Source of the DNA: an uncultured Gammaproteobacteria bacterium
GTDB taxonomy: Bacteria > Patescibacteriota > Patescibacteriia > SBBC01 > CAIJZX01
DNA length: 64,000 nt
Assembly (NCBI GenBank): GCA_964397195.1
Contig: CAYNGY010000002.1
Location: 180,012-244,011 of the forward strand
Direction: 5' to 3'
A program made the translations under genes and the position numbers. Below the pieces are notes generated by a model. The model was not told where the DNA came from, ran no database searches, and worked only from the letters and a program-made list of their open reading frames with translations. Every line of letters starts with the position of its first letter. Position 1 is the first letter of the stretch. Shown one piece after another: positions 3,001 to 21,671 of this stretch.

Positions 3001-6000
3001 GTTCTTTACGGCCAACTCGAATAACCTCGTCGTCGACGCCGGCTATAAGCTCATGGTCAATTCCGGGAAAACCTATACGCCGGGTGGGAATGTGACGACC
3101 GGACCTTCTACCAACGCGGCCACGGTGGACGGTGATGTGAATATTCCGGCTACGTCGACATTGAACCTCGGCACCAATACATTGTCTGTCGGTGGGCATC
3201 TGGTGAACGCCGGGACATTAAATAGTTCGGCTGGGTCGGCGATTGTTTTCACCAGTACCGCATCGGGAACGATGACGATTACCGGCGGCGGTGCGACGAT
3301 TTATGATCTAACACTGAACAATGCGAGCGGGCACTGGACAAACTCGGGGAATATCACGATCAACGGCAATTTCAATTTAACGGCCGGTGAATTTATTCAG
3401 GCGAATAGCACGACGATAACTGTCAACGGAACTGGTTTTACCTTAGCGAGTGGTTCAACATGGACGAAGGCGACATCGGGCGGCAATCTGATCCTTGAAA
3501 ACGGATCGAACCTCTCGTTTACGGATAATACGTCGCCGAAACAAAATCTCGGAGCGGTTCAAATCGGCGCCAGCCCCGGAACGACAACGTTGACGACAGA
3601 TATGAGTGCGACCTCGGTCACCATTCCGAACGGCGATACCTTTAACACAAAGGGGTATGACGTGACGACGACGGACTTCTTCGATTGCCAAGGTACTTGT
3701 ATCTTGAACTTAACCGATACCGGCCCGAGTAATGAAGGCGACGGGACGGTGCTTGATGTCGGCGGGGATTTCTCGATGTCGGATACCGCGACGTTTACGG
3801 CGGCGACGAGTATCTTGTTCATGAATAGCACGGCCGCCGCAAATTCGAATCGAACATGGATTACCGGCGGGAAGACGTACAACCATGTCGAATTAAAGAA
3901 TGCTGGGACATCTTTAAGCACCATCGAACCGTCTGGTGATGTTGATGTCAATGGCGATTTTACCATAACGGATGGGTACGTTGATTTCGGTGCGAACCCG
4001 CCAGTAACGGTGACGACGGCCGGGAATGTGACTATTGTGGTCGGGGCAACGGTCGTTGCACCGGACTCGTGGACCTTCGATGGCTCGGGGACAAAAACGT
4101 GGACAGATGGGACATCGGGTGGCGGTCAAAACCTCGGTGCGGTCGCCATTAATGGGAGTAGTAAAACCGTTAACCTTGGATCAGACGCGAAAGCGACAAC
4201 CGTAACCATTGCGGGGAGTCAAACACTGGGACTCGCCTCATCGGGGTATACGTTAACCATCACCGGATCTGGGACGGCTGGCTCGCGCCCATTCCAGAAT
4301 AATGGCACGCTCAACGAGGGGACGGACTCGACAGTCAAATATACCGGTACGGCGACGACGGATCTGTTCGACGAGACCTACTACCATTTGACGCTCGCCC
4401 CGGCTTCCGGGTCGCCGACGTTTAACATGGGGCCGGACGGCGTTTCGGGTTTCACGGTGACGGGGACATTGACCGTTGGCGACGCGACGCATGCGGTCAC
4501 CCTTGATACGAACTTTGACGATCAGCAGTACCTCAACGACGTCGTTATAGCTAATGCCGCAACATGGAATACGAATGCCGTTAATGGTCAGAGCATGTCG
4601 GGCAGTCTCGTCATGAACGGCACATTAACGATTAATGACGTTCTTGGGTTTACCGCGGCCACCCTCGGGCACACGATTTCTGGTAGTACCCTCAACTCGA
4701 CCGGGGCGTTGACGGCGGTTGTGTTTGATGGTGTCGGCGGAGGCTGGACCATTCAAAACGATACGGCATTTAGTAGTTTTAACATTATTGGCGGTTCGGT
4801 CATTCAAGGGCCAAATGTGAATATCACGGTTGATGGAGCCTGGGCGATGGCTTCAGGTACGACGTTTACCAAAGCTTCGGGGTCCGGGACGGTGACCTTT
4901 ATTGGGACGAGCGCGACCACCTTTACCGACAGCACGGCCAGTAAGCAAAATATTGGCGATGTGTTTATCACAAAAACGCATGGTACGCCGAGTAATAATA
5001 AAGTCACCTTAGCCTCTTCAATGCTCGCGGATACGGTCACCGTCAGCGCGAGTAATACACTTGATCTGGCGTCTGGCGGGTATACGCTGACGGTGGCAAA
5101 CGTCGGATCCTCGGCTGATCCTTTAACGGTGACCGGCACGTTGACGGCTTCCGGCAGTTCAACTGTGGCGTTAACCGCGACGAATAGCGGGGGAAGCGTG
5201 AACATTCCTACCACGACGTACTATGCCTTAGGTCTCGGGACGACCGCCGATTCGACGGCCGAAACCTACGTCTTGTCTGGGAATACGACGGTCAGCACTG
5301 TCTTGACGGTTGGGAATGCGTCCTCAGGAGCCGCCGATGCGTTTGATGCTTCGTCGCGGACGCTGACATTGCCAGGCGGCGGTACGCCTTTTGTGCTGAC
5401 TAGCCAAGGGACCTTTACAGCTTCGTCATCAACCGTGAATTATACCGGCGGACCATCGACTGTCACGGTCGTCGGCGCGACATATAATAATCTTGGGGTT
5501 GGGACGACGGTTGATATTACGACGGGCGTTATATATCAACTCGCCGCGAACACGACGGTGAGTGGAGTTCTGACCGTCGGAAATACTGGATCCACGAACA
5601 TCGATACCCTCGACGGCTCGTCAAGAACCTTAACGCTTTCCGGGTCCGGGACGCCGTTTGTCTTGACCTCAAAAGGGGCCTTCGCGCTCGGTACCTCGAC
5701 TGTCCTGTATAGTGGGACGTCGGCTACCACTATTGCGGCCACGCAATATTATAGTCTGACGACTGGGGTGAATGATGGGAATACGGTCACCTATACTCTC
5801 GATACTACTGCTGTTTCAAATACCTGTGCGACCGGGTCGACTGGGACGTATACTCAGGCATGTGGCGGGACATTGGCGATTACGACGGGTGATACGCTGA
5901 CGATCACCGGTGTCAACTTGTCCCTTTCGGCGGGCGGTACCCTTGTGTTGGATGGGACGATGGACGGAACTGGTACCTTCACCTATTTCTCAACGACGGA

Positions 6001-9000
6001 GTTCCCAAGCTCGGGCACGGTTTCGGTGGCGACTATCTACATGAACCTTTATTATAATGACGTAACGTTGAGTCCGCGGACATATGGCGGAGACGTCCTG
6101 GCCATTTCGTTTACTGGTTCAAATCGGACGCTCTATTTTGGGGCGGTATCTGAGGCCGGATCGCTCACGATTGGGGGTAGCAAGCGTTTGTTACTATACG
6201 CACAAAGTACCGGAAATATCACGCTTGATAACACTCGGAATAATTGGAACGTCACGATAGGAACCGATCTTCAAACACCGGGGAGCGGGGGCGGAACGGA
6301 AACTATTCTGGCTGGTTCCGGCACGTGGACTGCGAGCGGAAACGTGACGTTTACCAACGGGATATTTACCGCTGGTTCGAGTACGTTGACGATGAACGGT
6401 ACATCAAAAACGTTGACCTCGGCCGGAAACGCGCTCAATAATTTCAATCAGACCGGTGGGACGGTGACGATGTCTGGTGCGACTACCGTCAATAACAACT
6501 TTACCATTACCAGCGGGACGTTGACGGCGCCGAGCGCGGCAAACCTGAGTGTTGGCGGCGACTTCAATAATGCGGGAACCTTCACCCATAACTCGGGGAC
6601 GGTCATCATGACCGGGACGAGCAAAAATATTACCGGCGGCTCGGCCACAACCTTCAACAACCTGCAGATTTCCGGGACGACTGGCATTGATGCGGCTGGG
6701 AGTGATGCGACCGTGGCTGGGACGTTGACGGTCGATTCGTCAAAAATTTTGACAATTAATACCGGCCGAGTGGTCACTCACACAGGTACGACCGACGTGG
6801 CAAATTCTGGAACGATACAGGGTGCCGGGACATTACGCTTTACGAGCTCTTCGACCGGTGGGCCTGGAACCGGCGGGGCTATCAACTCGATTGTTCGATT
6901 TGATGCGAGCGGCGCTAGTATCCCGACGGCGGTCGTCGATGCGCGGACATATGGTGGTGACCTCGAATACTATTCGAATGTGGCCGCGGTGCGTACGATC
7001 ACCCCGGCAAGTACGACTCACACGGTGAGCGGGAATTTGAAGATCATAACCGGTGCCAGTCAGACGTCCTCGTTTACCGTCGCGGCAAATACAAACAATC
7101 CGACGTTCACGATTGCTGGCAACCTGAGTTATACGAAGGGCGCTTCGGCCACGCCGGCTGTGACCAGTGGGTCCGGGACGTGGACGGTAAGCGGCGACGC
7201 GACCTTTACCAATGGCACATATACGCCATCAACGAACAATACGTTCGTGATGGATGGATCAGGGAAGACTGTAGCCAGTACGGTCAGTTTTTATAAATTT
7301 ACGAGCAACGGCACAATTACATCTACCGGGAATGTTAGTGTGGCAAATATTCTGACGCTTCAATCCGGTAAGAGTCTGACTGTTTCGGGGACCTTGAACT
7401 GCTCCAATGCGAGCACGATCGTTATGACCGGGGCGACGCTTGATGGCGCCGGTACCCTTATATACCAAAAAGGCGGGACGGGGTTCCCGACCGATGGGAC
7501 GTTAAATATCGCGACGACGATGTTTGCGCCGACAACGGGGGCCGTAACCATCCCAAGTCGAACGTATGGTGGTAGCGTAGTATGTGAAGATGGATTGTCT
7601 GCCACCACTTGCACATTGACGGGGACGCCGATTATTACCGGCAATCTTTCGTTGTACGATGTCAGCTTGGGGGCGTCGTTTGATGGTACGCCGACATCAG
7701 TTACGATCGGCGGGAATTTCTCAGGGATCAATAATGGTGGCGGGAATGGATTGACCATGGCTGGGACGTGGACGGTCAGTGGCGACTTCGACATGTCGAG
7801 CCTGTCGAGTTTTAGCGCCGGGACGAGCTCGTTGGTCATGAATGGTGCCACCAAAACGCTGACCACGAACGGGAATAGTTTGTATGATTTTAGTGTCTCG
7901 GGTGGGAGTGTTTCCGTGGCTGGCACAAATGCGACGGTGTCTCATGATTTGACGGTGAGTAGCGGGGTGCTGACCGCTCCGACGGGAACGCTTTCCGTCG
8001 GTCGTAATTTTGCCCATTCGGGCGGAACATTTACACACAATAACGGGACTGTCGCTTTAACGACGAGTACGGCGGCGGCGGTATCGGGGAGTACTACATT
8101 TAAGAATCTCTCGGTGACCGGGATTGGGGCGGCTAAAACTATCACCTTCACGGCCAGCTCGACCCAAACGGTGACGGGGACGTGGACGGTGACCGGCGCA
8201 TCAGGGCAGATTGTGACCTTGCAATCGAGCTCGTCACCCACCAAGTGGAATATTAACCCGACGGCGGCGAGCGTCAGTTACGCGGCTGTGACCGACTCCG
8301 ATAACCAAGGCGTTTCGTTCTGCGCCACGTTCTCAACGGGAAGTAGTAATACCGGTTGGTCAATCGGTGCTGGGGCGAGCTGTGGTATTACGGTGTCGGG
8401 GACAGTCTATCAGTCGTCGAATGAAGGGTCAGGATATGGATGTAACAGCGACAACCTGACCATGTATGTTGCGGTTAATGGTGATGTCACTCCGGATTCT
8501 GGATTATGCAATTCCGCAGGCGGGACATTCACCATCACCGGTGTGACCGACCCGGGCGCGGCGAATATTCCCATTGCGGTCTACATCGATACTGGGGAAT
8601 CGGTGAAGGGGACGACCGTCACGCTGTCGAGCGCCAGCGGAGCCGACATTTCAGGGCTTTCGTTGATGCTCGATCGACTGGTCGTGAGTCAACAGAGCGG
8701 GACGGCCACGACGAATTCTCACTTAAACACGGCCGATAACGGAAATGCCGGTATTCGATATGCCGTGTCCGGCGGTGCGTTAACCGTTGACGCGGGGATG
8801 GAGCTCCATGTCCTGAGCGGAAAAACATTCACACCGGGCGGCGCAGTAACCACAACGGCGACTGGAACAGCGGCGGGAGCGGCCGGCGATGTGCATATCG
8901 CCGGGACGTTAACGATGGGTACGAACGCGCTCAATGTCGGTGGCGACTATACAAATGCCGGTACATTTAATAAAACGAACACACAGACGACAACCTTTGC

Positions 9001-11920
9001 GGCCACGGGCTCTGGATTTACGGTGACACCGGGCACGGGCGACATGAACGCAGTCACGTTCAGCGGTGATAGTGGTGGTAATGGTTCATGGACCATTACT
9101 GGGAGCGATCTGACCGTCGATGGTGCGTTAACGGTCAATACAGGCGATTCGTTGACGATTGATACAAGTCGGACACTGACCGCTTCCAGTAGTACCAATG
9201 TAAACAACGATGGGACTATCACCGGGGCTGGGGTGTTGAAGTTCCCAAGTGGTGCGGGCGGTCCTGACTCGGACGCAAATTCAACGGGCACGTATAGTTC
9301 GATCGTGCGCTATGATGCGACAAATGGCGATGTGGCGAGTACGACGATTGATGGTCGGACCTATAGTGGGCGCGTCGAACTTGTATCGACGTCATCAAGT
9401 AATCGCACCATCACCCTACCGAGCACTGCATTCACCGTATCCGGTGGAAGCTCACATTTTTATGTGCAAGCAAATGGGACTGGGGACCTGACCGCTGAAG
9501 CCGGAACGAACAATCCGACCATGACCGTCGGTGGGGCTTTGAAACTGAACGGGACCGGGGGCGGGAATGAAGTGTTGGCGATGGGTGACGGAACGTGGAC
9601 GGTGACGGGCGATGTGGACCTGGCACAAGGATTCACCGCACCGCACGTCGCTCAGCTCAACCCGGTTTGGGATAATTATGGCTATTCACAAGATGAATTT
9701 TTTGATGATGGCTTTGGAGGATGTAATTACGTCAATACAATCTATTCTTGCGGTACATCGAGTAGCACGACGATGGATACGGGCGATGATTTGACCACGA
9801 ATGGAGGTCAAACTTGTCCGAATCTAGGATCGAATTTCGACACACTCAACCGGGCGTATTTGAAGTACGATTTGTCGTCGATCAGTAACACCTATACGGT
9901 GACGGCCTTACAGCAACAAGTCTACGTTACGTCGGCTGGGTCGGGACCGACCATCGGGCGGGCGACGAGCGATACTCCAAACACGGCCGCTTGTGAGGAC
10001 TTATACAATGTTAGTGTGGCGACGCCGTATAATTCCTTCACCGACTGGGGGACTGGATCGAGGGTCGTTTCTCTGCCAACCTCGGGTGCTCAAGCCGCAC
10101 TTGGTACCACTGCGTTCTCGTTGGTCACATATAGCGGTACGCAGAGCATAATTAATTCAACCGACGCCGCGACGAATAAGCCGGTCTTGCGCATTGGATA
10201 TTATACGCCGTCGACATCACCAACCTTAATCATGAACGGGACAGGGGTGACGTTGACGGCGAACGGTGCCCAGCCGGCGAACTTCTATAATTTGACGCTC
10301 TCCGGGACGGTGACGGTCAACTTGACCACGACGGTGTACGTCTTCCACAACTTCGATTTGTCGGGAACGGTTACGAATAACACCGCCGCACTGGTCATGA
10401 CCGGTGTGGCCAGCGGCGCAACGTTATCTGGCCATGGCAATACCATCGGTAACATGAGCATCACTGATAATGGCAATGTGACCATGGATAGTAGTTTGAC
10501 GTTGTCGAGTGCGTTGGTGGTCTATTCGGGCGCGACGCTGACCCTAGCGTCAGGTCAGACACTGACTCACTCGGCGGGCACATTCATCCTCAACGGCACC
10601 ATTGCTGGTCCGGGATTGCTAACTATCACCAATAGCTCCTCGGGTCCCGGCTCGACGGGCACCCTGAATGCCCCCGTACAGTTTGATGCGACCGCGGGGA
10701 ATATTGCGACCACGACATTCGATGCCCGAACGTACAACGGTGCGGTTGAATTGTACTCGAACAGCGGCTCGGCCCGATCGATTACGGCGCCGACCTCCGG
10801 GACGTATTCCTTTGCATCGAGCGTCACGACTACGAGCGCGAATACTGGCGCGCTCACCTGGGATCTCGATAACACGACCGATCCAACCGTCACTATCACC
10901 GGCGCCACGTCGATTGGATCGAATACGACGCTCGAAGCTCCAAGCTCGACTACTCTGACGTTGAATGGGAATTATACAAACAGTGGCACGTTCACCGATG
11001 ATGCCGGCACGGTCGCCATTGGCGGCGGGAGCCCCCAAACACTCGGTGGTACGCTGAGTGGTAGTTCCGACTTTAATAACCTGACCATCACGAACACCAG
11101 TGGTAGCGAATCGGCACCCGGCGTGGTCTTTAGTGCCGCTGTGGCCGCGGCTGGGACGTTGACCGCGAACGCGAACACCAAGCTTCAATTCCTCGCCGGG
11201 ACGACATCGTCCGCGGCGGCTCTCGCCTTGAACGGTACGGTCGGGAATATGATCTATCTCCGTTCATCGTCGCCGGGCTCGTCGTGGAATTTCAATAAAA
11301 CATCCGGCGGAACGCCGACTATTACCTACACGAATATTCGCGATTCGTACGCCTGTGGTTCAAGTGGTGGGGAAATTGATGCGTCCGATGCGCCGAACGG
11401 CTCAAACGTTGATTATGCGAATAATACGTGTTGGCTCATCAATACCATCTCGCTCAGTATTTCTGATACGAGTGTCGGCTTCGGGAGTTGTCAGGCCGGT
11501 TCCGCACGCTACGCCACTGGCGATACACTTGGCGCCTCGAGTGATTCAACGGATGCCCATACCGTCAGCGTAACCACGAATGCGCGGAATGGATATACCC
11601 TGAGTGTACAAGGGGCGACGCTGACCTCGGGCGGCAATACGATTTCGGCGATTGGTGGATCGCCGGCCGCGTCCAACCCGGGCAGCGAACAGTTTGGTCT
11701 TCGGGCCATAAAAAATAGCGGCACCGGCACCATACAGAGTCCGTATAATTCGGCTAACTGGGGGTATAATGGGGTGTCCGCGGCTTCAACCATTGCCAGT
11801 CATACCGCCGGTGTTGCCTCGACCGTCTATGGTATTCGGTACATTTGTAATATCAACGCGTTGACTGAGGCGGGAAATTACTCGTCAAATTTGACCTACG
11901 TGCTGACCGGCCAGTTCTAA
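1..11920 (+). CDS. Giant secreted surface protein, partial at the 5' end (the reading frame is open to nt 2). The N-terminal part carries at least six autotransporter-associated PATR beta-strand repeats, followed by long beta-helix-like G/T/S/N repeats. The C-terminal ~170 aa is a WxL-like domain shared with the 13673..14728 gene.
   Basis: The ORF runs to the window edge with no stop upstream in frame. It contains repeated motifs of the form LTKxGxGTLxLSGxNTYTGxTTIxAGTLxL, for example TKWGAGTMTITGTNLNTGLVQVNAGTLKY, LTKTTGGTVTLSGTNTFSGITTISGGTLSV, YTKIGPGTLILSGSNLHTGLNTVLAGTLKL and LTKDGTGILYLPNANTYTGLTTINAGIIDI. The C-terminal block ...ISDTSVGFG..RYATGDTLG...LTSGGNTISA...EQF...TEAGNYSSNLTYVLTGQF aligns at roughly 45% identity with the C-terminus of the small protein downstream. 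Confidence 0.8.
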   Translation, partial: SAARIINSGGGTLTFSGAPSGAFNFVVGGSGNTTFSTAFPNAAATITKWGAGTMTITGTNLNTGLVQVNAGTLKYAATTTLAAPNLIVNGGTFDFNGNTDTIGTVTMRSGTITDSNGTPGALTGATAYELYSGTISGVLTGGGVPLNKRTGGTVTVTKSQSYTNLTTVLAGTLQYGASNIIADAAAITVNGGTLDVQSYADTLATVTLTNGYIIGGGTLTGSAYNVMSGSISAILAGAVNLTKTTGGTVTLSGTNTFSGITTISGGTLSVGSIGNGLSAGNLGAASNAAANIVFNTGTGTLAYTGGSASTDRNITTTTGITMQIDVTNPAAVLTWSGATTATTAPYTKIGPGTLILSGSNLHTGLNTVLAGTLKLGAANVLVTGGLTVTNGTFDLNNFSDSLGAITISKDGQIIDSVGTTAILTTSAAGVYQSGTISARITGSSASAFTKSTSDRVILSGNNTHTSTAVTLSAGALNLQHSNALGISTTALLVTETSGAVVEVQNTVTIPSNKTFNISGTGVNLGGAIENVADSNTLQGTITLGASNTRINSNLGTLTISGNIAGNALNVVYGGAGNIAQNGTIGTTSGTLTKDGTGILYLPNANTYTGLTTINAGIIDIQNATSLGTTANGTVVNSGATLRSSVFVTVGVEALTLNGTGVSNVGALQSYVEAVTWQGAVTLASNASIGVNDSPASITGTIIGSGSNGLTKVGSGSLTVSTTTLGGDLTISAGTLVASGSSVISVGGSWSNSGTFTANSSTVSLTSTTSATITGNTTFNNFSVTGIGAAKTISFVHGSTTTVSGTWTVNGGAVGTRIVLTRDNTSNWNVNPATAALDYVDISYVTNQGSYFCATHSVTANGGNANIGVTSGTACGVTVSGFIYTNDASSALNCTVGGTRTVAVKVNGSGSFTGACSSSSGDFTVSAVPITAAGDVLTVFISGATEKAATVTIAADNTSDITNIPLRVSRLVVTHESAGPITNHATTGIGRYDKDDDATNLFFTANSNNLVVDAGYKLMVNSGKTYTPGGNVTTGPSTNAATVDGDVNIPATSTLNLGTNTLSVGGHLVNAGTLNSSAGSAIVFTSTASGTMTITGGGATIYDLTLNNASGHWTNSGNITINGNFNLTAGEFIQANSTTITVNGTGFTLASGSTWTKATSGGNLILENGSNLSFTDNTSPKQNLGAVQIGASPGTTTLTTDMSATSVTIPNGDTFNTKGYDVTTTDFFDCQGTCILNLTDTGPSNEGDGTVLDVGGDFSMSDTATFTAATSILFMNSTAAANSNRTWITGGKTYNHVELKNAGTSLSTIEPSGDVDVNGDFTITDGYVDFGANPPVTVTTAGNVTIVVGATVVAPDSWTFDGSGTKTWTDGTSGGGQNLGAVAINGSSKTVNLGSDAKATTVTIAGSQTLGLASSGYTLTITGSGTAGSRPFQNNGTLNEGTDSTVKYTGTATTDLFDETYYHLTLAPASGSPTFNMGPDGVSGFTVTGTLTVGDATHAVTLDTNFDDQQYLNDVVIANAATWNTNAVNGQSMSGSLVMNGTLTINDVLGFTAATLGHTISGSTLNSTGALTAVVFDGVGGGWTIQNDTAFSSFNIIGGSVIQGPNVNITVDGAWAMASGTTFTKASGSGTVTFIGTSATTFTDSTASKQNIGDVFITKTHGTPSNNKVTLASSMLADTVTVSASNTLDLASGGYTLTVANVGSSADPLTVTGTLTASGSSTVALTATNSGGSVNIPTTTYYALGLGTTADSTAETYVLSGNTTVSTVLTVGNASSGAADAFDASSRTLTLPGGGTPFVLTSQGTFTASSSTVNYTGGPSTVTVVGATYNNLGVGTTVDITTGVIYQLAANTTVSGVLTVGNTGSTNIDTLDGSSRTLTLSGSGTPFVLTSKGAFALGTSTVLYSGTSATTIAATQYYSLTTGVNDGNTVTYTLDTTAVSNTCATGSTGTYTQACGGTLAITTGDTLTITGVNLSLSAGGTLVLDGTMDGTGTFTYFSTTEFPSSGTVSVATIYMNLYYNDVTLSPRTYGGDVLAISFTGSNRTLYFGAVSEAGSLTIGGSKRLLLYAQSTGNITLDNTRNNWNVTIGTDLQTPGSGGGTETILAGSGTWTASGNVTFTNGIFTAGSSTLTMNGTSKTLTSAGNALNNFNQTGGTVTMSGATTVNNNFTITSGTLTAPSAANLSVGGDFNNAGTFTHNSGTVIMTGTSKNITGGSATTFNNLQISGTTGIDAAGSDATVAGTLTVDSSKILTINTGRVVTHTGTTDVANSGTIQGAGTLRFTSSSTGGPGTGGAINSIVRFDASGASIPTAVVDARTYGGDLEYYSNVAAVRTITPASTTHTVSGNLKIITGASQTSSFTVAANTNNPTFTIAGNLSYTKGASATPAVTSGSGTWTVSGDATFTNGTYTPSTNNTFVMDGSGKTVASTVSFYKFTSNGTITSTGNVSVANILTLQSGKSLTVSGTLNCSNASTIVMTGATLDGAGTLIYQKGGTGFPTDGTLNIATTMFAPTTGAVTIPSRTYGGSVVCEDGLSATTCTLTGTPIITGNLSLYDVSLGASFDGTPTSVTIGGNFSGINNGGGNGLTMAGTWTVSGDFDMSSLSSFSAGTSSLVMNGATKTLTTNGNSLYDFSVSGGSVSVAGTNATVSHDLTVSSGVLTAPTGTLSVGRNFAHSGGTFTHNNGTVALTTSTAAAVSGSTTFKNLSVTGIGAAKTITFTASSTQTVTGTWTVTGASGQIVTLQSSSSPTKWNINPTAASVSYAAVTDSDNQGVSFCATFSTGSSNTGWSIGAGASCGITVSGTVYQSSNEGSGYGCNSDNLTMYVAVNGDVTPDSGLCNSAGGTFTITGVTDPGAANIPIAVYIDTGESVKGTTVTLSSASGADISGLSLMLDRLVVSQQSGTATTNSHLNTADNGNAGIRYAVSGGALTVDAGMELHVLSGKTFTPGGAVTTTATGTAAGAAGDVHIAGTLTMGTNALNVGGDYTNAGTFNKTNTQTTTFAATGSGFTVTPGTGDMNAVTFSGDSGGNGSWTITGSDLTVDGALTVNTGDSLTIDTSRTLTASSSTNVNNDGTITGAGVLKFPSGAGGPDSDANSTGTYSSIVRYDATNGDVASTTIDGRTYSGRVELVSTSSSNRTITLPSTAFTVSGGSSHFYVQANGTGDLTAEAGTNNPTMTVGGALKLNGTGGGNEVLAMGDGTWTVTGDVDLAQGFTAPHVAQLNPVWDNYGYSQDEFFDDGFGGCNYVNTIYSCGTSSSTTMDTGDDLTTNGGQTCPNLGSNFDTLNRAYLKYDLSSISNTYTVTALQQQVYVTSAGSGPTIGRATSDTPNTAACEDLYNVSVATPYNSFTDWGTGSRVVSLPTSGAQAALGTTAFSLVTYSGTQSIINSTDAATNKPVLRIGYYTPSTSPTLIMNGTGVTLTANGAQPANFYNLTLSGTVTVNLTTTVYVFHNFDLSGTVTNNTAALVMTGVASGATLSGHGNTIGNMSITDNGNVTMDSSLTLSSALVVYSGATLTLASGQTLTHSAGTFILNGTIAGPGLLTITNSSSGPGSTGTLNAPVQFDATAGNIATTTFDARTYNGAVELYSNSGSARSITAPTSGTYSFASSVTTTSANTGALTWDLDNTTDPTVTITGATSIGSNTTLEAPSSTTLTLNGNYTNSGTFTDDAGTVAIGGGSPQTLGGTLSGSSDFNNLTITNTSGSESAPGVVFSAAVAAAGTLTANANTKLQFLAGTTSSAAALALNGTVGNMIYLRSSSPGSSWNFNKTSGGTPTITYTNIRDSYACGSSGGEIDASDAPNGSNVDYANNTCWLINTISLSISDTSVGFGSCQAGSARYATGDTLGASSDSTDAHTVSVTTNARNGYTLSVQGATLTSGGNTISAIGGSPAASNPGSEQFGLRAIKNSGTGTIQSPYNSANWGYNGVSAASTIASHTAGVASTVYGIRYICNINALTEAGNYSSNLTYVLTGQF

Positions 11921-11956
11921 TATCGTTGACAGCTATAGGAAAAGGGGGTAAGAACC

Positions 11957-13552
11957 ATGCGTATGAAGCATTTGTGGTCGCGTCGACGAGTCATCTCTTG
12001 GGCATCCCGTGGCCTTTTTTGTGGGCTGTTGATGGTGATGTTTTTTTCTGGGGCACAGGTAGTGCAGGCCCAAATGACCTTGATCGACGAGGCTGACGAC
12101 GGCGTCTTGGTCAGTGGCGGCATCACCTTCGATCTTCGTCAGTACCGATTCTGTCGCGACCCGATCACTTGTGAACTTCCGGATCGGCTTTCGAACATCG
12201 ATCTCTTCCTGCGCCGACACAAAGTTGGTCTGTATACACCTGATGCCCGTCCATTAGAGCCGGCGGCGGAAGTGGTGCGATTAAATATCGTCCCGCAGGC
12301 ACTCGGATATCTGAATTTGTACCAGACAACTCATGTGTGGCGATACCGTCAGGAAGCTGTCGATCGTTTGCAGTATCTTCTACACATTGGACCAGATGTC
12401 TACGGTCGGGGCGTGCGCTCCGGGATGACTGGGTACGCATTTCTCATGGGGTATCGGTATACCGGAAACGCGGCTTACAAAAAAGCGGCCCAGCGTATCG
12501 CTGAAGAGTGTCTGACACAGCCGCTCGGGGATCGATGGATGAATGGGGGATTGATGTGTGGGTTTCACTTAGCGGGCATGTATCGACTGACCGGGGACGT
12601 TCGGTATCAAACGGAGGCTCGTAAGATTGTCGAGCGAACGTCAGTTTGGCAGTACCCAAATGGCGCTTGGCCACATCAGCCCCATCCGGATGGCGGAAAT
12701 ACGAGCTATACGGCGTGGATGGTGACCGAGCTATTATTGATGCATGAGGATGATCCCGGGTACGAGCTTGGTGATTTATTGCTGGCAAAATCCATCAACT
12801 TTTTGGCGCAACGTGTAAACACCGACGGGAGTTTGAATTATAGTGATGCCGCCGGTGACTACTACCTTGATCCGGGCGGCTTGGAATCACGTTTCTGGAC
12901 CGGAGAACTAGCCAATATTGCCCTCGATTTGTCGGCTGGTGGTCGTCGCGATGCCGCGAACAAGGTTTTGCGAACACTCTTTTCCTATGAAATGACAGGG
13001 AAAAATCGTGGCGGATACCCGGATAAATACAATCTATCGAACACGACGACTATTTGGGAAACAGGGAGCCCCTCAGTTGTTCGGACGTCGATGATATTTT
13101 GGTATCTGTCGATGATTGATCAATTCGATCGCCCGTGCCGGTCTGGCGGCACGCCGACGTGTACTATTTCGTCGCCATCGTGTAGTCCGTTGTATTCCGG
13201 TATGGGTCAATGTCCGCAAGGGATAACAGGGAACCGTACCTGCCTCGCTGGTACTTACACGTCGTGTTTTGAACTAGCTACGACTCAGCTTTCTGAGCCG
13301 CTCATTTGCCAGGTCGATTCGTATTGTGAGAATGATCGTCAGTGGGGAGCGTGTTATTATACGTGTTATCGATCTGGGAAACAGCTCTGTCTGAATGGGG
13401 TTTGTGCAGGGATCTGCTACGCGGTACAGGAAGGGGAGGTGCAATGCGATTCTGAGTGTTACCAAGATCAGTCCTGTCCGGCTGGGGCGGACGCTCTACC
13501 GCCTGGACTGTCCGTGGACGACCAGAAGTTGCGGCGCCAGCCTTCCCGATAG
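11957..13552 (+). CDS. Secreted protein of unknown function. It has an N-terminal signal or transmembrane segment, an alpha-helical repeat-rich core, and a Cys-rich C-terminal module of about 120 aa with roughly 25 Cys.
   Basis: The ATG at 11957 is preceded by a GGGGG Shine-Dalgarno sequence. A hydrophobic N-terminus (LFCGLLMVMFFSGAQVVQA) is present. The C-terminus has dense cysteines (CRSGGTPTCTISSPSCSPLYSGMGQCPQG...CYAVQEGEVQCDSECYQDQSCP). No motif allows a confident family assignment. Confidence 0.55.
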   Translation: MRMKHLWSRRRVISWASRGLFCGLLMVMFFSGAQVVQAQMTLIDEADDGVLVSGGITFDLRQYRFCRDPITCELPDRLSNIDLFLRRHKVGLYTPDARPLEPAAEVVRLNIVPQALGYLNLYQTTHVWRYRQEAVDRLQYLLHIGPDVYGRGVRSGMTGYAFLMGYRYTGNAAYKKAAQRIAEECLTQPLGDRWMNGGLMCGFHLAGMYRLTGDVRYQTEARKIVERTSVWQYPNGAWPHQPHPDGGNTSYTAWMVTELLLMHEDDPGYELGDLLLAKSINFLAQRVNTDGSLNYSDAAGDYYLDPGGLESRFWTGELANIALDLSAGGRRDAANKVLRTLFSYEMTGKNRGGYPDKYNLSNTTTIWETGSPSVVRTSMIFWYLSMIDQFDRPCRSGGTPTCTISSPSCSPLYSGMGQCPQGITGNRTCLAGTYTSCFELATTQLSEPLICQVDSYCENDRQWGACYYTCYRSGKQLCLNGVCAGICYAVQEGEVQCDSECYQDQSCPAGADALPPGLSVDDQKLRRQPSR

Positions 13553-13592
13553 CGATCCGTAGTCAGATTAGGTGGGTGGCGGTGTCCCTATT

Positions 13593-13621
13593 TTGACCGA
13601 GTTGTAAAAATGTGCTACAAT
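13593..13621 (+). promoter_or_regulatory. Sigma70-like promoter: -35 TTGACC, a 17-nt spacer, and an extended -10 TGcTACAAT.
   Basis: TTGACC sits at 13593-13598 and TACAAT at 13616-13621, with TG two nt upstream of the -10. It lies about 50 nt upstream of the 13673 start. Confidence 0.5.
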
Positions 13622-13672
13622 AAGGTGAGTAAATATCAAATAGTAGCCTCTTGGCTAAGGTTGGCCAAATAT

Positions 13673-14728
13673 ATGATTAAAAGACATTCCGTTCGTTCCC
13701 TTTCCCGTCGTAGCGCCGCGCTATTAGCCATTTTTGGCTTGATGGTAGGGATGAATATCGGGTCAATTCAGGAGGCCACAGCGGCCCAGATTACTCCGGC
13801 GAAGGTGACCATGTCCAACCTTAACGCGAGTGGTACTGGTACCTTGGCTTTTGCCTTTACCACCATCACCTCGTTATCGGCGACCAATACCATTAAATTA
13901 CAGTTTGATCCAACGGGAGATCTCTTTACACTGGCATCCGTAGCCGATACGGATTTTTCAGCCGTCTCTGGAATGACGATTGTTAATGCTTGTGGTGGCG
14001 GGTCTGATGAAGTAACGGTGACGTCGGATACGTCGGCGCCTGATGAGAGCTATACGTTGACGGTTTGTTCGGGTGATACCGTTGGTGCCGGAGCCAAGGC
14101 ATTTACGATCGCCACCGCGAAAGTGACGAATCCAGCAACACCAGCCGCGTATAAGATCGCCATTACTACCACATCAGACTCGGCGACGATCGCCATTCCG
14201 GTCATTACCAATGATGTGGTCAATGTGTCGGCGACTGTCGACCCATCCATTACGTTCAGCATTTCTGATGTGACCGTTGGGTTCGGAACGTTGGCTTCGG
14301 GTGCTGTCCGCTACGCCACCGGTGATACGCTCGGTGGGACGACCGAAACGACCGCTGCGCACACGATGTCGGCCGGGACAAACGCCGTGTCGGGGTTAGC
14401 GGTCACTTACTCTGGCGGCCTGCTCACGAGCGGTGGTAATACGATCAGTGCGGCAACGAGCGTCACCCCGCCGGGGAACACCGCGGCCGAGCAGTTTGCT
14501 ATTGCAGTTGACGATAATGGAACGGCCTTTACGATTGCCGCGGGCTACGATCAGGCGACACCGATCTATTCGTACGTCGGTACGGGCACGACGACGGCAT
14601 TATTTTCGTCGGCGGGGCCGCTGTCCTCGACCAACGTTGATGTTCATTATCTGGCGAACATTGCCGCCAATACCGAAGCCGGTAACTACTCGACCAACAT
14701 CACCTACATCGCTACGGCTACTTACTAG
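13673..14728 (+). CDS. Secreted protein whose C-terminal ~170 aa is homologous to the C-terminus of the giant protein. This is a WxL-like surface-binding domain with a C-terminal motif YSTNITYIA.
   Basis: The start was chosen at MIKRHS... (RBS AAGG, 13 nt upstream) rather than at the ORF-track start, which overlaps the promoter. A signal peptide is present (LLAIFGLMVGMNIGSIQEATA). The C-terminal domain aligns with giant-protein residues around 3775-3947. Confidence 0.7.
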   Translation: MIKRHSVRSLSRRSAALLAIFGLMVGMNIGSIQEATAAQITPAKVTMSNLNASGTGTLAFAFTTITSLSATNTIKLQFDPTGDLFTLASVADTDFSAVSGMTIVNACGGGSDEVTVTSDTSAPDESYTLTVCSGDTVGAGAKAFTIATAKVTNPATPAAYKIAITTTSDSATIAIPVITNDVVNVSATVDPSITFSISDVTVGFGTLASGAVRYATGDTLGGTTETTAAHTMSAGTNAVSGLAVTYSGGLLTSGGNTISAATSVTPPGNTAAEQFAIAVDDNGTAFTIAAGYDQATPIYSYVGTGTTTALFSSAGPLSSTNVDVHYLANIAANTEAGNYSTNITYIATATY

Positions 14729-14758
14729 GTCGGCAGCAGCGGTACTGGATTTACGTCC

Positions 14759-15784
14759 ATGTCAAAACAAATAGCACGTTCCCTCCTGATTGCCGCGGTT
14801 GTCCTCGCTGGACTGTCGGTTCACCATTCAGCGCAGGCGCTATCCTTAGTGCCACCGAGTTTGGAGTATAGCGTTAAGCCGGGAGATGTTGTTGCCGATC
14901 AGGTAAAGCTCTATAACGAACAGGATCAGTCCATGACGGTCACACCGTCGTCGGCGAATTTTGGTGCAAAAGACGAAACCGGCCAGCCGGACTTTACCTT
15001 TGATGCGCCATCGGCCGATTTGGCGTCGTGGATTACGCTTGATACATCGCCTCTGACGATTAAACCGAGCGATCGTGCCACAATTGCCTTCACCATCACG
15101 GTGCCAAAGAATGCCGAACCGGGCGGGCACTATGCCGGAATTTTCTTTGCCACCGGTGCGCCAAAAGAGGGACAGGTCGCGGTTCAATCAAAAATTGGGA
15201 CGTTGATTATTCTCAGTGTGGCAGGGAATGAGAAAGAATTAGCGTCGATTGTCGAAACCGGTGTCAATAATGCACAAAAAACACTTAGTCGCTTGCCGGT
15301 ATCATTTTTCGCGAGAATTCGGAATACCGGAAATGTCCATGTTCGCCCCGAGGGATCGGTGACGATTAAGAATATGTTCGGGCGAGTTTCGGCCGTGATT
15401 CCGGTGAACGATGTGCGCGGCGCGGTGTTACCGAAGAGTATTCGTCGTTTTGAGATGAGCTGGTCGAAAGGTGCGGATGTCTGTGATCAAGAACCCGATG
15501 GGACCTCAAAGCCGTGCGGTTTTTTTCAGCAAGTTGGCGCGGAGTGGCGGAACTTCGGATTTGGCACATACACTGCCTCGTTTGATCTGACCTATGGGAA
15601 AACATCGAAGGCGCTGAGTGACAGCGTTTCCTTCATGATCATTCCGTGGCGACTCTTGTTAGTTGAGTTTCTGGCCTTGGTGTTGCTAGTCGTGGTGTTC
15701 CTGTTTGGCATTCGTCGTTATAATCGCGCGATCATCCGGAGCGCGCAATCAAGGAAGAACATCCCGCCGGTTAAGCGCATGTAG
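14759..15784 (+). CDS. Surface protein with a signal peptide, a DUF916/DUF3324-like beta-sandwich region and a C-terminal transmembrane anchor. It resembles the CscA-type partner found in WxL loci.
   Basis: A signal peptide is present (LLIAAVVLAGLSVHHSAQA). The core YSVKPGDVVADQVKLYNEQDQSMTVTP resembles the DUF916 motif F.L.VKPGQ.Q.L.V.V.N. The C-terminal hydrophobic helix WRLLLVEFLALVLLVVVFLFGI is followed by a basic tail. Confidence 0.45.
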   Translation: MSKQIARSLLIAAVVLAGLSVHHSAQALSLVPPSLEYSVKPGDVVADQVKLYNEQDQSMTVTPSSANFGAKDETGQPDFTFDAPSADLASWITLDTSPLTIKPSDRATIAFTITVPKNAEPGGHYAGIFFATGAPKEGQVAVQSKIGTLIILSVAGNEKELASIVETGVNNAQKTLSRLPVSFFARIRNTGNVHVRPEGSVTIKNMFGRVSAVIPVNDVRGAVLPKSIRRFEMSWSKGADVCDQEPDGTSKPCGFFQQVGAEWRNFGFGTYTASFDLTYGKTSKALSDSVSFMIIPWRLLLVEFLALVLLVVVFLFGIRRYNRAIIRSAQSRKNIPPVKRM

Positions 15785-15787
15785 CCC

Positions 15788-16660
15788 ATGTTCGGCTCTT
15801 GGGCGCAGTTTGTTCATCGGGCGCTCCTCGGGAGCGTCGCTTTGGTTTTAGGGATGTGGCCGTATTCGGTGGCGGCGCAAACCGTGACCGGCTCGGCGTC
15901 GGTTGGAGTGAGTGCAGTCGTAATCGACCAGAACGTCGTGCCAACAAACCCGAGCGTCGAGTTTCATGGTGTTGTTTCGCCCAACGCGACGGTCACCATT
16001 TCTCGGGACGGGACGGTCGTGTCGTCACAGCTTGCTTCCAGCACAGCTGATTTTGTCGCCGTGTTGCTCGACCAGCCGGCTGGACCGCAAAACTATCTCA
16101 TCTCTGCGGTTGATACGAGCGGCGCGGCCTTAGCGCCGATCTCGTTTTCGCTAACGCTGGTGGTCAATACGAATACCATCATCACCGGCGTTTTCTTGGG
16201 TCCGTCAATTCGGATTGATAAATCAGCCGTCAAACTCGGCCAATATGTCACCGTAGCTGGTATGACCGCTCCGAGCAGTGATGTGAGCGTTACCATCCAT
16301 TCGACCCAGGCTAAGAGTTTTACGGTCACGGCCGACGGATCCGGGCGGTGGTCGAAGTTGGTGAACACGGATGATGTGGGTGTTGGAACGCATACCGCCC
16401 AAGCACGGGCCGTGCTCGGTGGGAGTCAAATTTCAGCGGTGAGCGCAGTAGTGTCGTTCGCGGTTAATCCGCTCGAACAGTGTGATGGAAAAAAGACGGC
16501 CGATGTGAATTGTGATGGACATGTCGATTTAACTGACTTTAGTATCTTGCTGTATTTCTGGCAACAGACAAATCCACGGAATAGTCGGGTCGATATTAAC
16601 GCCGATGGCCGGGTTGATGTGATTGATTTTAGTATCATGCTCTACCAATGGACAAATTAA
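15788..16660 (+). CDS. Secreted protein with Ig-like beta domains and a C-terminal type-I dockerin module of two Ca-binding repeats.
   Basis: The C-terminus reads DVNCDGHVDLTDFSILLYFWQQ...VDINADGRVDVIDFSIMLYQW. That is a duplicated DxNxDGxVDxxDfsilL dockerin signature. An N-terminal signal peptide is present. Confidence 0.75.
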   Translation: MFGSWAQFVHRALLGSVALVLGMWPYSVAAQTVTGSASVGVSAVVIDQNVVPTNPSVEFHGVVSPNATVTISRDGTVVSSQLASSTADFVAVLLDQPAGPQNYLISAVDTSGAALAPISFSLTLVVNTNTIITGVFLGPSIRIDKSAVKLGQYVTVAGMTAPSSDVSVTIHSTQAKSFTVTADGSGRWSKLVNTDDVGVGTHTAQARAVLGGSQISAVSAVVSFAVNPLEQCDGKKTADVNCDGHVDLTDFSILLYFWQQTNPRNSRVDINADGRVDVIDFSIMLYQWTN

Positions 16661-17766
16661 GAAACATGCTCGTAGTCGCTCCGGTGTTGGCGTTGAGTTT
16701 TTTAGCCGCGCCGGCGCGGGCCGTGGAGCCATCCATACAATTCGTCCCGCAAGTTGGCTTTACGCGACCGGGCGAGACGCTGACGGTTGATGTCCGACTG
16801 ACGAACCTAGATCAGCCAATTAACGCCGTTGACCTGTCAATCGGTTATCCAACCGATGTATTGCGACTTGATCGGATCGATCGTGAACGGTCAGCGTTCA
16901 CCCTATGGCCGGAGGAACCGCAAATTCAGTCAGCGTCGGGCGTGGCGCATGTTGTAGGCGGTCTGCCGAACGGTCTCTATGCGCATGACGCCCGGGTGGT
17001 GACGCTCCGATTTACAACGCGTCATGCTGGCCAAGGCGCCTTTCGCATCGTGGCCGGTAAGGTCTACCTCAATGATGGACTTGGTACGGCAGTGCCTATT
17101 GTCGCCGAACAGACAGCGGTTACGGTACAGAGTGAATTTCTCGATCATATTCAGCTGACGTCGTCGCATCATCCGAATGATGGCGCATGGAGTGCGGAAC
17201 GGACCGTCGATATTTCATGGGTCGCCGAGGCCGGACGACAATACAGTTACATTTTTGATGCGGACGGAACCATCGCTCCCGATACCCACCTGGATGAAAT
17301 CAAACCGTTGCTCTTTACGGATCTTGCCGACGGTCGATATTCATTCGCTATTATTTCGCGTGGCGCTGACGGTCTATGGTCTCCAGTTACCCAGCGTTGG
17401 TTTCTGATTGACGGCACTGCCCCGGAGGTACCAATCCTGGTCCACCCCGATCCGACGACCGTGAACGGGGCGAATCTTCTGGCCTGGTCAGCTGTTGATC
17501 GAATGTCGGGCATTGTCCGATCCGAACTGTACGTCGGTGGAAAAAAACAGGGCGATGTTGAGAGTCCCGTTCGATTACAATCTCGTTGGGCCGGTCAGAC
17601 GCTGACCATCCGGGCGTACGACGCGGCGGGGAATAGCCAAGCAGCGTCTTGGGTCATGCCGGGTATGCGCCAACCGAGCTGGGTAACGCTTGGGGCTGGC
17701 GGTGGTGGCCTATTACTTCTCCTGTTCGTGCTGGTCATCATATTCCGACAACGACGTCGAACATGA
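16648..17766 (+). CDS. Membrane-anchored protein with a signal peptide, a cohesin-like domain, an FN3/Ig-like domain and a C-terminal transmembrane helix. This is paralog 1 of 3.
   Basis: The N-terminal domain VEPSIQFVPQVGFTRPGETLTVDVRLTNLDQPINAVDLSIGYPTDVLRL...VTLRFTTRHAGQGAFRI fits the cohesin strand pattern. A C-terminal GGGGLLLLLFVLVIIF transmembrane segment is followed by RQRRRT. The start overlaps the upstream stop. Confidence 0.6.
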   Translation: MDKLRNMLVVAPVLALSFLAAPARAVEPSIQFVPQVGFTRPGETLTVDVRLTNLDQPINAVDLSIGYPTDVLRLDRIDRERSAFTLWPEEPQIQSASGVAHVVGGLPNGLYAHDARVVTLRFTTRHAGQGAFRIVAGKVYLNDGLGTAVPIVAEQTAVTVQSEFLDHIQLTSSHHPNDGAWSAERTVDISWVAEAGRQYSYIFDADGTIAPDTHLDEIKPLLFTDLADGRYSFAIISRGADGLWSPVTQRWFLIDGTAPEVPILVHPDPTTVNGANLLAWSAVDRMSGIVRSELYVGGKKQGDVESPVRLQSRWAGQTLTIRAYDAAGNSQAASWVMPGMRQPSWVTLGAGGGGLLLLLFVLVIIFRQRRRT

Positions 17767-17782
17767 TATACTCTGTTCAAAT

Positions 17783-19153
17783 ATGCACCGTTTTTCTCGA
17801 GTAGTGCGTGGATTAACATCGGGGCTTGCTGCGGCCTTTTTGACAGTCGTTTTTTTGTCGCGTCCGACGGCCGCCGCGGCAGCTGGGGCGTCGTTAAAAT
17901 TGTCGCCGAGTAGCGGGACCTATGAGGTCGGGTCGTTGGTGGATATTTCGATGATGGTTGATACTGGCGGCGAGTCAATAAATGCAGTCGCGGCCACGTT
18001 GCGTTTTCCGGCCGATAAACTTCAGGTTGTAAATCCGGCGGCGAGCACGTCGTTCATTTCTATTTGGGTCAATGCGCCTACCTATTCAAATACCGACGGA
18101 ACCGTTTCGTTCCAAGGCGGTTTGCCGAATCCGGGTATCAAAACGAGCGCCGGCGTCATTAGTACGATTTCCTTCCGCGTCAAGGTGCCGGGCACGGCGA
18201 CCCTTAAGTTCGATCCGAACGCAAGCATTTTACGCAACGACGGACAGGGGACAAATATTCTGACCTCTACAAGCTCGGCTGACCTGACACTCAAGGTGCC
18301 GCCGCCGGCGGGACCAGTTGTCAGTAGTCCGACGCACAGCGATCAAAATGCTTGGTACAATAATGGGCAAGTTCAGTTTACTTGGGAGGCGATTGATGGC
18401 GCGGTAGGGTACAGCTATGTGTTTGATCAGTCGCCAAAAACAATTCCGAATGAGACGATCAACTCGGCTCTTCACGCGGTGAGCGTCAAAGCGGCCAATG
18501 ATGGGATTTGGTTTTTTCACATCCGCTCGAAAACTGATTCATGGGGCGGAGTGACAACATTTCCGGTTCAGATCGACACGACGGCTCCGGCCACCTTCGG
18601 TCCGGTCATCGACCAAGATCCCTTAACCACCGAAGACTCCGGGATAGTACGATTTGCCACGACTGATGCGGCCTCCGGGATTGATCACTACGAAGTGAAA
18701 ACGGTAGCGCAGTCAGGCGGATCAACGGCGCAGAATACGCTGTTCGTTGAAGCGAGTAGTCCATTTTCACTACCGAAACTGTCGGCCGGAACGTATACGG
18801 TGATTGTCCGGGCCATTGACCGGGCCGGAAATGCCTACGATGGGACTCGCTCTGTGCAGGTTGTGAGCGGTGGTGTACCATTCTATTCGCGGGTTCCATT
18901 CCTTCGGGATCCGGCGGTTGCTAACGCCGTCCTGATCGTCCTCGGTGTTATTACCACGACGCTCCTCTCGAGTCTCTTGCTCCGTCGAGTGCGGTTACGT
19001 GCAACCTTCCATCACGACTTGGAGATGCTCGAACACGATGCGCAGAAGAAAGCGGCAGTGCTTCAGCGGGAATTAGATGAGCTTCGTCGCGCGCAGCAGA
19101 TGTTCCCGGCGCCGCCCCAAAACCAACCACATGACCAACACCCAACGCCTTAG
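17783..19153 (+). CDS. Membrane-anchored cohesin-like-domain protein, paralog 2 of 3, with an FN3-like domain, a transmembrane helix and a coiled-coil cytoplasmic tail.
   Basis: The start was chosen at MHRFSRVV, just after the previous stop at 17766. The ORF-track start at 17690 overlaps the previous gene. The cohesin-like block is LKLSPSSGTYEVGSLVDISMMVDTGGESINAVAATLRFPADKLQVV...ISFRVKVPGTATLKF. The transmembrane segment is AVLIVLGVITTTLLSSLLL. The tail is ELDELRRAQQ. Confidence 0.6.
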   Translation: MHRFSRVVRGLTSGLAAAFLTVVFLSRPTAAAAAGASLKLSPSSGTYEVGSLVDISMMVDTGGESINAVAATLRFPADKLQVVNPAASTSFISIWVNAPTYSNTDGTVSFQGGLPNPGIKTSAGVISTISFRVKVPGTATLKFDPNASILRNDGQGTNILTSTSSADLTLKVPPPAGPVVSSPTHSDQNAWYNNGQVQFTWEAIDGAVGYSYVFDQSPKTIPNETINSALHAVSVKAANDGIWFFHIRSKTDSWGGVTTFPVQIDTTAPATFGPVIDQDPLTTEDSGIVRFATTDAASGIDHYEVKTVAQSGGSTAQNTLFVEASSPFSLPKLSAGTYTVIVRAIDRAGNAYDGTRSVQVVSGGVPFYSRVPFLRDPAVANAVLIVLGVITTTLLSSLLLRRVRLRATFHHDLEMLEHDAQKKAAVLQRELDELRRAQQMFPAPPQNQPHDQHPTP

Positions 19154-21520: not shown

Positions 21521-21538
21521 CCTCAGACATGGTATACT
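21510..21538 (+). promoter_or_regulatory. Promoter for tRNA-Val: -35 TTGCGG, a 17-nt spacer, and an extended -10 TGgTATACT.
   Basis: TTGCGG lies at 21510-21515 and TGGTATACT at 21530-21538. It is about 40 nt upstream of the tRNA 5' end. The same TGGTA(T/A)A motif precedes ftsZ, rpsU and the 45232 gene. Confidence 0.5.
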
Positions 21539-21577
21539 GTGCCCATTCGTCGCGCATTCCGCGATTTTCACGGTCGC

Positions 21578-21654: not shown

Positions 21655-21671
21655 GACAGATTTTTTATCAC

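Follow-up and report, generated by a model that had tools for sequence, protein, structure and literature searches.

Introduction

Attachment to other microbes is the way of life of the cultivated bacteria of the Candidate Phyla Radiation (CPR), and, to our knowledge, little is known of the molecules by which they make first contact. In the present study, we analysed a 64,000-nucleotide stretch of contig CAYNGY010000002.1 (hereafter the window), in which a giant surface protein and a small protein of 351 amino acids (aa) encoded downstream of it share a C-terminal domain. This domain belongs to the Pam pilin C-terminal family, which was defined recently and whose solved members join subunits. 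It is not a WxL domain, and the most likely product of the locus is a surface filament with the giant adhesin at its tip.

The closest described system is the Pam pilus of the ultrasmall CPR bacteria. A 2026 preprint on donor-strand-exchange pili of CPR bacteria examined the filaments of the CPR parasite Candidatus Mycosynbacter amalyticus by cryo-electron microscopy (cryo-EM) and identified the pilins PamA and PamB (10.64898/2026.03.03.709456). These are built of an N-terminal beta-sandwich of about nine strands, a single strand as linker and an open-barrel C-terminal domain, and by cryo-EM the linker of a given subunit occupies the C-terminal domain of the subunit that follows it; PamA also carries a post-translational modification (10.64898/2026.03.03.709456). 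On the basis of AlphaFold models, the same work proposed that PamT is a tip subunit consisting of the C-terminal domain alone, that PamC and PamD are PapD/FimC-like chaperones anchored in the membrane by a transmembrane (TM) helix, and that PamR is a donor-only membrane anchor (10.64898/2026.03.03.709456). The NCBIfam model NF058581 (CPR_Pam_pilin_C, 'Pam pilus system pilin subunit') derives from this preprint, and its solved members are subunit-joining domains in the filament, not cell-wall binders (10.64898/2026.03.03.709456).

The second system is found in Firmicutes, where WxL clusters have a layout of one large protein, one small protein and one WxLIP (PMC10599100). WxLIP has a signal peptide, two immunoglobulin-like (Ig) domains and a TM helix in 337-365 aa, and AlphaFold puts one WxLIP strand into the WxL domain (PMC10599100). 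The WxL domain itself is characterised by an Asp/Arg pair upstream of its first motif (PMC9772566). In the present study, a WxL domain was taken to be marked by two Trp-x-Leu motifs (W1 and W2) that lie on neighbouring strands and by Asp at W1-8 together with Arg at W1-6.

Results

The two proteins that carry the shared domain and the parts of them that matter here are as follows.

2 to 11920, plus strand: giant surface protein; the frame is open to the 5' edge of the window, and 5,928 aa are called on the source contig
11444 to 11917, plus strand: C-terminal Pam-pilin-type domain of the giant (83.3 bits to NF058581); the match of the domain hidden Markov model (HMM) begins at 11411
13673 to 14728, plus strand: small two-domain protein, 351 aa, proposed shaft pilin, with signal peptide, beta-sandwich, linker and C-terminal domain
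14210 to 14245, plus strand: inter-domain linker NDVVNVSATVDP, proposed donor strand; near-invariant motif, low model confidence
14246 to 14725, plus strand: C-terminal Pam-pilin-type domain of the small protein (57.0 bits to NF058581), 42% identical to the copy of the giant

In BLASTP, the C-terminus of the giant open reading frame (ORF) aligned with the small protein at 72 identities in 172 positions (42%) and 62% positives, with an expect value (E) of 3e-34. The original prediction, made from the sequence of the window, had described a C-terminal likeness of about 170 aa at an identity of about 45%, and its description is borne out with this slightly lower value. The conserved blocks SISDxxVGFG, RYATGDTLG, AHT, LTSGGNTISA, EQF and TEAGNYS and the terminal motifs YSSNLTYVLTGQF and YSTNITYIATATY were each recovered in the pairwise alignment, and the spacing of 1.7 kb holds (1.75 kb from the giant stop at 11920 to the start of the small protein at 13673). 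When the domain HMM was run on all six frames of the window with filters off, it found exactly two copies, at 11411-11917 (E=3e-59) and 14210-14725 (E=4e-64); there was no third copy in the window, all other six-frame scores being no lower than E=0.3. Since no DNA-level repeat was found between the two coding regions, the likeness is an old paralogy kept at the protein level, and a recent duplication or gene conversion was ruled out for the same reason.

Both proteins pass the curated cut-off of NF058581 (55 bits), and among the small-protein homologues 46 of 48 match this model at E<=0.001. A Pfam scan of both proteins gave no WxL at E<=1 and no other convincing family, and neither the small protein nor the domain profile gave a meaningful match when searched against the sequences of the PDB. 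The suggestion in the original prediction of a new surface-attachment domain was thus not quite right, because a curated family is matched whose solved members join filament subunits. Sub-threshold Pfam matches were also seen among the 48 members of the pilin family, namely to DUF2808 in five (best E=0.002) and to Enas endospore appendages in two (E=0.026). The Enas appendage is another strand-complementation fibre.

The small protein has 167 homologues of about 350-370 aa. All those with a named source are from Patescibacteria (Kerfeldbacteria, which are placed within the Parcubacteria group, Nomurabacteria and Pacebacteria), and most of the 167 are metagenome proteins.

The AlphaFold2 model of the 351-aa protein, made from a 48-sequence alignment, had a mean predicted local distance difference test score (pLDDT) of 89. 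It consists of a signal-peptide helix (8-28), about ten strands (43-178), a dip in confidence (181-190) and a beta domain with strands at 193-349, and the linker is the sole low-confidence stretch inside this monomer model. As predicted, the fold reproduces the Pam pilin layout of N-terminal beta-sandwich, linker and C-terminal domain. The domain of the giant, modelled alone, gave a pLDDT of 88 and a predicted template modelling (TM) score of 0.83. In a Foldseek search of the PDB with this domain-only model, more than 30 of the best 50 matches were chaperone-usher pilin subunits, including FimF/G/A, CfaB, CS20, the pilin domain of PapG with PapD (2wmp_B), Caf1, CsuA/B and PapA, and a Sulfolobus thread was also among the best 50. 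Foldseek with the full-length 351-aa model was uninformative; it returned generic two-Ig adhesins (SdrE, ClfA and Cna) at TM scores below 0.27, which are driven by the two-domain shape.

The giant carries beta-helix-type PATR repeats (PF12951, 54.4 bits over 4 stretches). Downstream of the small protein lies a series of further genes.

14759 to 15784, plus strand: 341-aa protein with signal peptide, Ig-like domains and C-terminal TM helix, proposed PamC/D-like chaperone
15788 to 16660, plus strand: dockerin protein, 290 aa, proposed donor-only terminator at the filament base (Dockerin_1, 38.3 bits)
15902 to 15922, plus strand: VGVSAVV donor-strand-like motif of the dockerin protein, 8 residues past the predicted signal-peptide cleavage site
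16648 to 17766, plus strand: 372-aa cohesin-like protein with signal peptide and C-terminal TM helix, proposed dockerin-binding membrane anchor
17783 to 19153, plus strand: paralogous surface protein with signal peptide, N-terminal domain (cohesin-like by orthology), Ig-like domain and charged tail
19077 to 20813, plus strand: paralogous surface protein, 578 aa, last conserved gene of the block, with an orthologue at the same position in locus L003

This arrangement was compared with four related loci from other CPR genomes (L003, L005, L006 and L007), and all four have the same order: a giant, one to three pilins of about 360 aa, a homologue of about 345 aa of the 14759-15784 protein, a dockerin protein of about 290 aa, and at least one cohesin-like protein per locus with a signal peptide and a C-terminal TM helix or charged tail. 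The chaperone-like gene directly follows the pilins in each of them, and no usher-like gene was seen in the conserved block. The giants of these loci have 3,335-5,666 aa and each ends in the shared domain (E=1e-40 to 1e-54). The Dockerin_1 match of the 290-aa protein stands well above the Pfam cut-off (22.9 bits), and the domain HMM detected no Pam C-terminal domain in this protein. The 372-aa protein ends in a hydrophobic stretch followed by RQRRRT. The 17783-19153 protein is a conserved operon member, whose orthologues pass the Pfam Cohesin cut-off of 24.1 bits in L003 (29.7 bits) and L005 (25.6 bits). Translation of the 578-aa protein probably begins at the ATG at 19131.

The distribution of one short strand motif divides these proteins further. 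The linker DD[ST]VNV[TS]ATVD[PA]S is near-invariant in all nine pilins from the five loci, and across 48 sequences V183 never varies and A187 and V189 hardly do. Where the pilins read VNVTATVDPS, the segment preceding the domain of the giant is VDYANNTCWLINT, and the equivalent segment is unrelated to the linker in all five giants. At the mature N-terminus of the dockerin protein, a strand of the same kind was found in five of five (VGVSAVV, VSVSATV, LSVSAVV, VSVSAVV and VNISAVV). We then scanned about 61,000 residues, taken from the long ORF fragments of the window and the related loci, with the pattern [VIL].[VI][ST]A[TV]V. It gave 13 matches, of which 8 lie in pilin linkers and 5 at the mature N-termini of dockerin proteins; there were none elsewhere in these residues, including about 16,000 aa of giant sequence. 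By the distribution of motif and domain there are thus three subunit classes: the giant is acceptor-only, the pilin is donor plus acceptor, and the dockerin protein is donor-only.

Because the donor and acceptor elements are split over three protein classes in this manner, an order of subunits can be proposed. The shared domain of about 160 aa would be an incomplete Ig-like C-terminal pilin domain that accepts a beta-strand from the next subunit. The giant PATR-repeat protein would occupy the distal tip, the position of FimH and PapG in Escherichia coli pili, and would be restricted to it since it has the acceptor domain without a donor strand. The 351-aa protein could polymerise head-to-tail into the shaft, because it has both the donor strand (NDVVNVSATVDP) and an acceptor domain, which would take the donor strand of the neighbouring subunit. 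The 290-aa protein, with a donor-like strand and no acceptor domain, would close the filament at its proximal end. Its dockerin would be bound by cohesin modules in the membrane-anchored proteins encoded next to it, and this attachment of the filament to the cell would take over the part of PamR. For the 341-aa two-Ig protein, the role would be the one put forward for PamC and PamD, namely to bind subunits just after their secretion and complement them temporarily with a strand.

The first of the two readings in the original prediction, a divergent WxL family, is only partly sustained. Membership fails, since the Pfam model WxL (PF13731) is unmatched, both Trp-x-Leu motifs are replaced and the Asp/Arg pair is missing; among the 48 family members there was no match to PF13731 at E<=10 either. 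In the giant, the residues aligned with W1 and W2 are G-Y-T-L and T-Y-V-L; the small protein has G-L-A-V and T-Y-I-A at these places. Over 49 aligned domains the W1 position is Tyr in 26, Leu in 8, Trp in 8, Val in 5 and Phe in 2, and the W2 position is Tyr in 48 and Trp in one, so that the Tyr noticed earlier at the place of Trp is a family trait. The D-x-R pair of WxL is replaced by T-N in the aligned domains. A distant kinship to WxL systems is possible, chiefly through the WxLIP-like neighbour and the cluster layout.

For a direct comparison of profiles, a hand-written WxL consensus was of no use, as it did not retrieve the WxL chain from the PDB. WxL sequences were taken instead from an Enterococcus lactis locus (L001), located through its WxLIP gene; a word-indexed search with SwpA gave 19 close relatives only, and an exhaustive representative search then gave 148 diverse small WxL proteins. 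In hhalign, the domain profile reached E=0.3 against the shallow WxL profile, and the 49 domains against the 148 WxL proteins reached a marginal E of 0.013-0.018 (probability 2.6-3.3%) over 119-123 colinear columns. In this superposition, GFG lies on the 'FG' block of WxL, TNAxxG[YW]x[VIL] on the first motif and AGxYxxx[LI]TYxA on the second.

These comparisons bear on a rival explanation, namely a static WxL-type complex without a filament, in which a distant WxL domain docks the giant and the small protein onto the WxLIP-like protein and/or peptidoglycan, as proposed for the WxL clusters of Firmicutes. The neighbouring 341-aa gene favours it, being a distant WxLIP/DUF916 relative of the same architecture, and the layout of a large and a small protein with a common C-terminal domain beside one WxLIP-like gene is that of the minimal WxL cluster (PMC10599100). 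The colinear hhalign match scores 20, reversed profiles score about 10, and none of 100 column shuffles reached the real score; when a WxL HMM was run on a mixed set of 1,134 sequences, the best matches after the true WxL proteins were mostly these domains, each at E 0.05-5. However, the hhalign probability is very low, and 4 of 100 block-of-8 shuffles, which keep the motif blocks intact, equalled the real score. Furthermore, no WxL chain was among the best 50 Foldseek matches in the PDB, although the library contains 9i25 (WxLIP bound to a long WxL), and the family lacks the Trp-x-Leu motifs and the Asp/Arg pair. The static complex also leaves unexplained the strand motif that is common to the pilin linkers and the dockerin N-terminus and missing from the giants. 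Hence we regard it as unlikely. It is more improbable still that the domain is a C-terminal secretion, sorting or envelope-retention tag which joins no subunits and matches Pam through a common beta-rich fold only: it does stand always at the extreme C-terminus with a conserved final aromatic residue (F/Y), as in many sorting domains, and its structural matches are weak, but the curated domain model is passed by both proteins and matched by nearly all relatives, no sorting-domain family was matched in the Pfam and NCBIfam scans, and a donor/acceptor split over three protein classes in five genomes is not what a tag predicts.

The position of the 341-aa protein was examined in the same way. Its best Pfam family is WxLIP_PGBD (PF06030, DUF916) with 24.3 bits, below the cut-off of 27.3, and 21 of 40 relatives match PF06030 (best E=1.4e-7). 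The top match of its family profile among 177,635 PDB sequences was EfmWxLIP1 (9i25_C and 9i1y_A, E=0.006), and hhalign against an Enterococcus WxLIP gave E=1.3e-4 and a probability of 54% over 121 columns of the first domain. DUF3324 was not detected in this protein. By these profile matches it is a distant WxLIP/DUF916 relative, and by analogy with PamC/D it is proposed to be a membrane-anchored chaperone.

Discussion

Taken together, it is probable that the locus is a Pam variant of a Parcubacteria host, with a giant adhesin as the tip and dockerin and cohesin at the base. The likeness to the Pam system of Candidatus Mycosynbacter amalyticus (pilins PamA, PamB and PamE, with PamT, PamC/D and PamR) extends over several features: the C-terminal domain passes the family cut-off, the small protein has the layout of beta-sandwich, linker and C-terminal domain (on this side by AlphaFold2 prediction), a protein with a signal peptide, two Ig domains and a C-terminal TM helix is encoded beside the pilins, there is one acceptor-only and one donor-only subunit, and the CPR host has no outer membrane or usher. 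The differences are also clear. The acceptor-only subunit here is a PATR-repeat adhesin of more than 5,900 aa, whereas that of Pam is the single-domain PamT; the donor-only subunit has a dockerin at its end, cohesin-bearing membrane proteins are encoded after it, and there is no RbmA-like PamR; the lineage is Parcubacteria (Kerfeldbacteria/Nomurabacteria-like) and not Saccharimonadia or Microgenomatia; and the chaperone-like protein has WxLIP as its nearest sequence relative.

With the Gram-negative chaperone-usher pili (Fim, Pap, Caf1, Csu and CFA/I), the locus would have in common the class of incomplete Ig-like pilin fold and the logic by which a tip adhesin of two domains, a shaft subunit that is both donor and acceptor, and a terminator are combined. 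However, there is no usher and no outer membrane here, the chaperone candidate is membrane-anchored, and the proposed donor strand lies between two domains, while in chaperone-usher pilins it is an N-terminal extension. The similarity is one of fold only, as no sequence similarity was detected.

Several points weigh against this reading of the locus as a Pam variant. The small protein is only 2 bits above the cut-off of NF058581, and both proteins fall short of the PamT equivalog NF058579 (giant 52 bits, small protein 16.6 bits, cut-off 240); the giant is accordingly a functional analogue of PamT, not an orthologue. The 341-aa chaperone-like protein matches no NCBIfam model, and the cohesin-like 372-aa protein has 21.3 bits, below the Cohesin cut-off, which its orthologues in L003 (30.1 bits) and L007 (26.2 bits) pass. 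A homologue of PamR was not found, and no RbmA-like anchor, with a strand at the N-terminus and a TM helix at the C-terminus, was recognised at the locus. The Foldseek matches of the modelled domain are weak (best E=6e-3, TM scores 0.3-0.5), and their theme is uniform and in agreement with the Pam preprint despite these scores. We infer the insertion of the linker strand into the neighbouring C-terminal domain from sequence and from analogy with Pam, and polymerisation, the order of subunits, the role of the chaperone and the cohesin-dockerin anchoring are put forward on the same grounds. In addition, we know of no described precedent in the Pam system for a 5,900-aa tip on a thin filament. 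Finally, the Pam preprint is unreviewed and reports these pilins mainly in Saccharimonadia and Microgenomatia, not in Parcubacteria (10.64898/2026.03.03.709456).

The relation between the Pam variant proposed here and the WxL clusters (PF13731 and PF06030; PDB 9i25 and 9i1y) deserves consideration beyond the static complex. The two have in common a beta-rich C-terminal domain present in one small and one large adhesin-like protein, a membrane-anchored two-Ig protein encoded alongside (WxLIP, with DUF916, DUF3324 and a TM helix) and a terminal motif of the shape G-x-Y-x-x-x-[LI]-T-[YW]-x-[LA]. They differ in that the domains of the window have no Pfam WxL match and no Asp/Arg pair, that DUF3324 is unmatched, that Trp is exchanged at both motifs as described above, and that WxL is described as a peptidoglycan-binding anchor and not as a filament subunit. 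The architecture of WxLIP is the same as the one reported for PamC/D. A distant common origin of Pam-type and WxL systems is therefore possible, and it is better supported by the WxLIP-like neighbour and the cluster layout than by the domain itself. WxL goes unmentioned in the Pam preprint (10.64898/2026.03.03.709456), and our literature searches yielded no paper in which WxL is connected with CPR or with donor-strand pili, nor a publication that describes PDB 9i25.

In nearly all of the 30 small WxL proteins that were read among the 148, the signal peptide is followed by a short alternating strand (for example GDITFTEP, GTVTFTEN or AKITFDGT), a Pro/Asp-rich linker and the WxL domain. At the Enterococcus lactis locus (309-989 and 2118-2462), SwpA starts with GDITFTEP and a 114-aa wall-anchor-like protein starts with GTITFYD. 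These strand motifs mirror the donor-only, donor-plus-acceptor and acceptor-only logic of the window and suggest that WxL systems may use strand donation. As a tentative view, which we rate below even chances, Pam pili and WxL clusters could be two branches of an ancient usher-less strand-complementation system in single-membrane bacteria, in which WxLIP would correspond to PamC/D and the WxL domain to the acceptor, and WxL proteins would be joined by strand donation rather than simply adhere to peptidoglycan. The kinship of the chaperone-like protein to the WxLIP of Enterococcus, Listeria and Lactobacillus could reframe the assembly of a large Gram-positive family of virulence and adhesion proteins.

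If the filament proposed here exists, a widespread Parcubacteria group mounts an adhesin of more than 5,900 aa on the tip of a Pam-type filament, whose base is held by a cohesin-dockerin pair. This combination of giant tip and cohesin-dockerin base is not described in the Pam preprint. It would add a lineage to the classes from which the Pam system has been reported, and would provide concrete, testable candidates for host-contact proteins in uncultured lineages.

The control of the pilin gene was considered as well, and one further feature was noted upstream of it.

13593 to 13621, plus strand: promoter-like site upstream of the pilin gene (TTGACC, 17-nucleotide spacer, TG-TACAAT)

This site is the top-scoring one in 11800-21800, with 10 of 12 positions and an extended -10, and on sequence it suggests that the shaft pilin is transcribed separately and strongly. 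It overlaps an alternative ATG at 13610, and for this reason the start codon at 13610 was rejected and that at 13673 preferred.

Between the giant and the pilin, a secreted protein of 531 aa is encoded (11957-13552, plus strand) in this genome only, being absent from the four related loci. It has weak matches of the alpha/alpha-toroid type (Pec_lyase, GH76, GH127 and LanC-like), all below cut-off, and its C-terminal 100 aa or so are very Cys-rich. In L006, a second pair of pilin and chaperone lies downstream of the cohesin genes (15621-17792), and therefore the module can duplicate within the operon. The Kerfeldbacteria giant of L007 (1-9877) has precomputed matches to the DNA-binding domains MerR/HTH_17. 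Such matches are unexpected in a surface adhesin, and a fusion made in gene calling may account for them.

Immediately downstream of the operon, on the plus strand at 20810-22382, there are a GT2 glycosyltransferase (20810-21520), tRNA-Val (21578-21654) and signal peptidase I (21672-22382); by analogy with the modified PamA, it is conceivable that these flanking genes are linked to pilin processing. Farther along, at 26269-32514 on the plus strand, the window encodes another very large surface protein (2,081 aa), which combines Big_5 repeats with a fused N-terminal pilin domain of the conjugation type (T4SS_pilin, PF18895, 28.9 bits).

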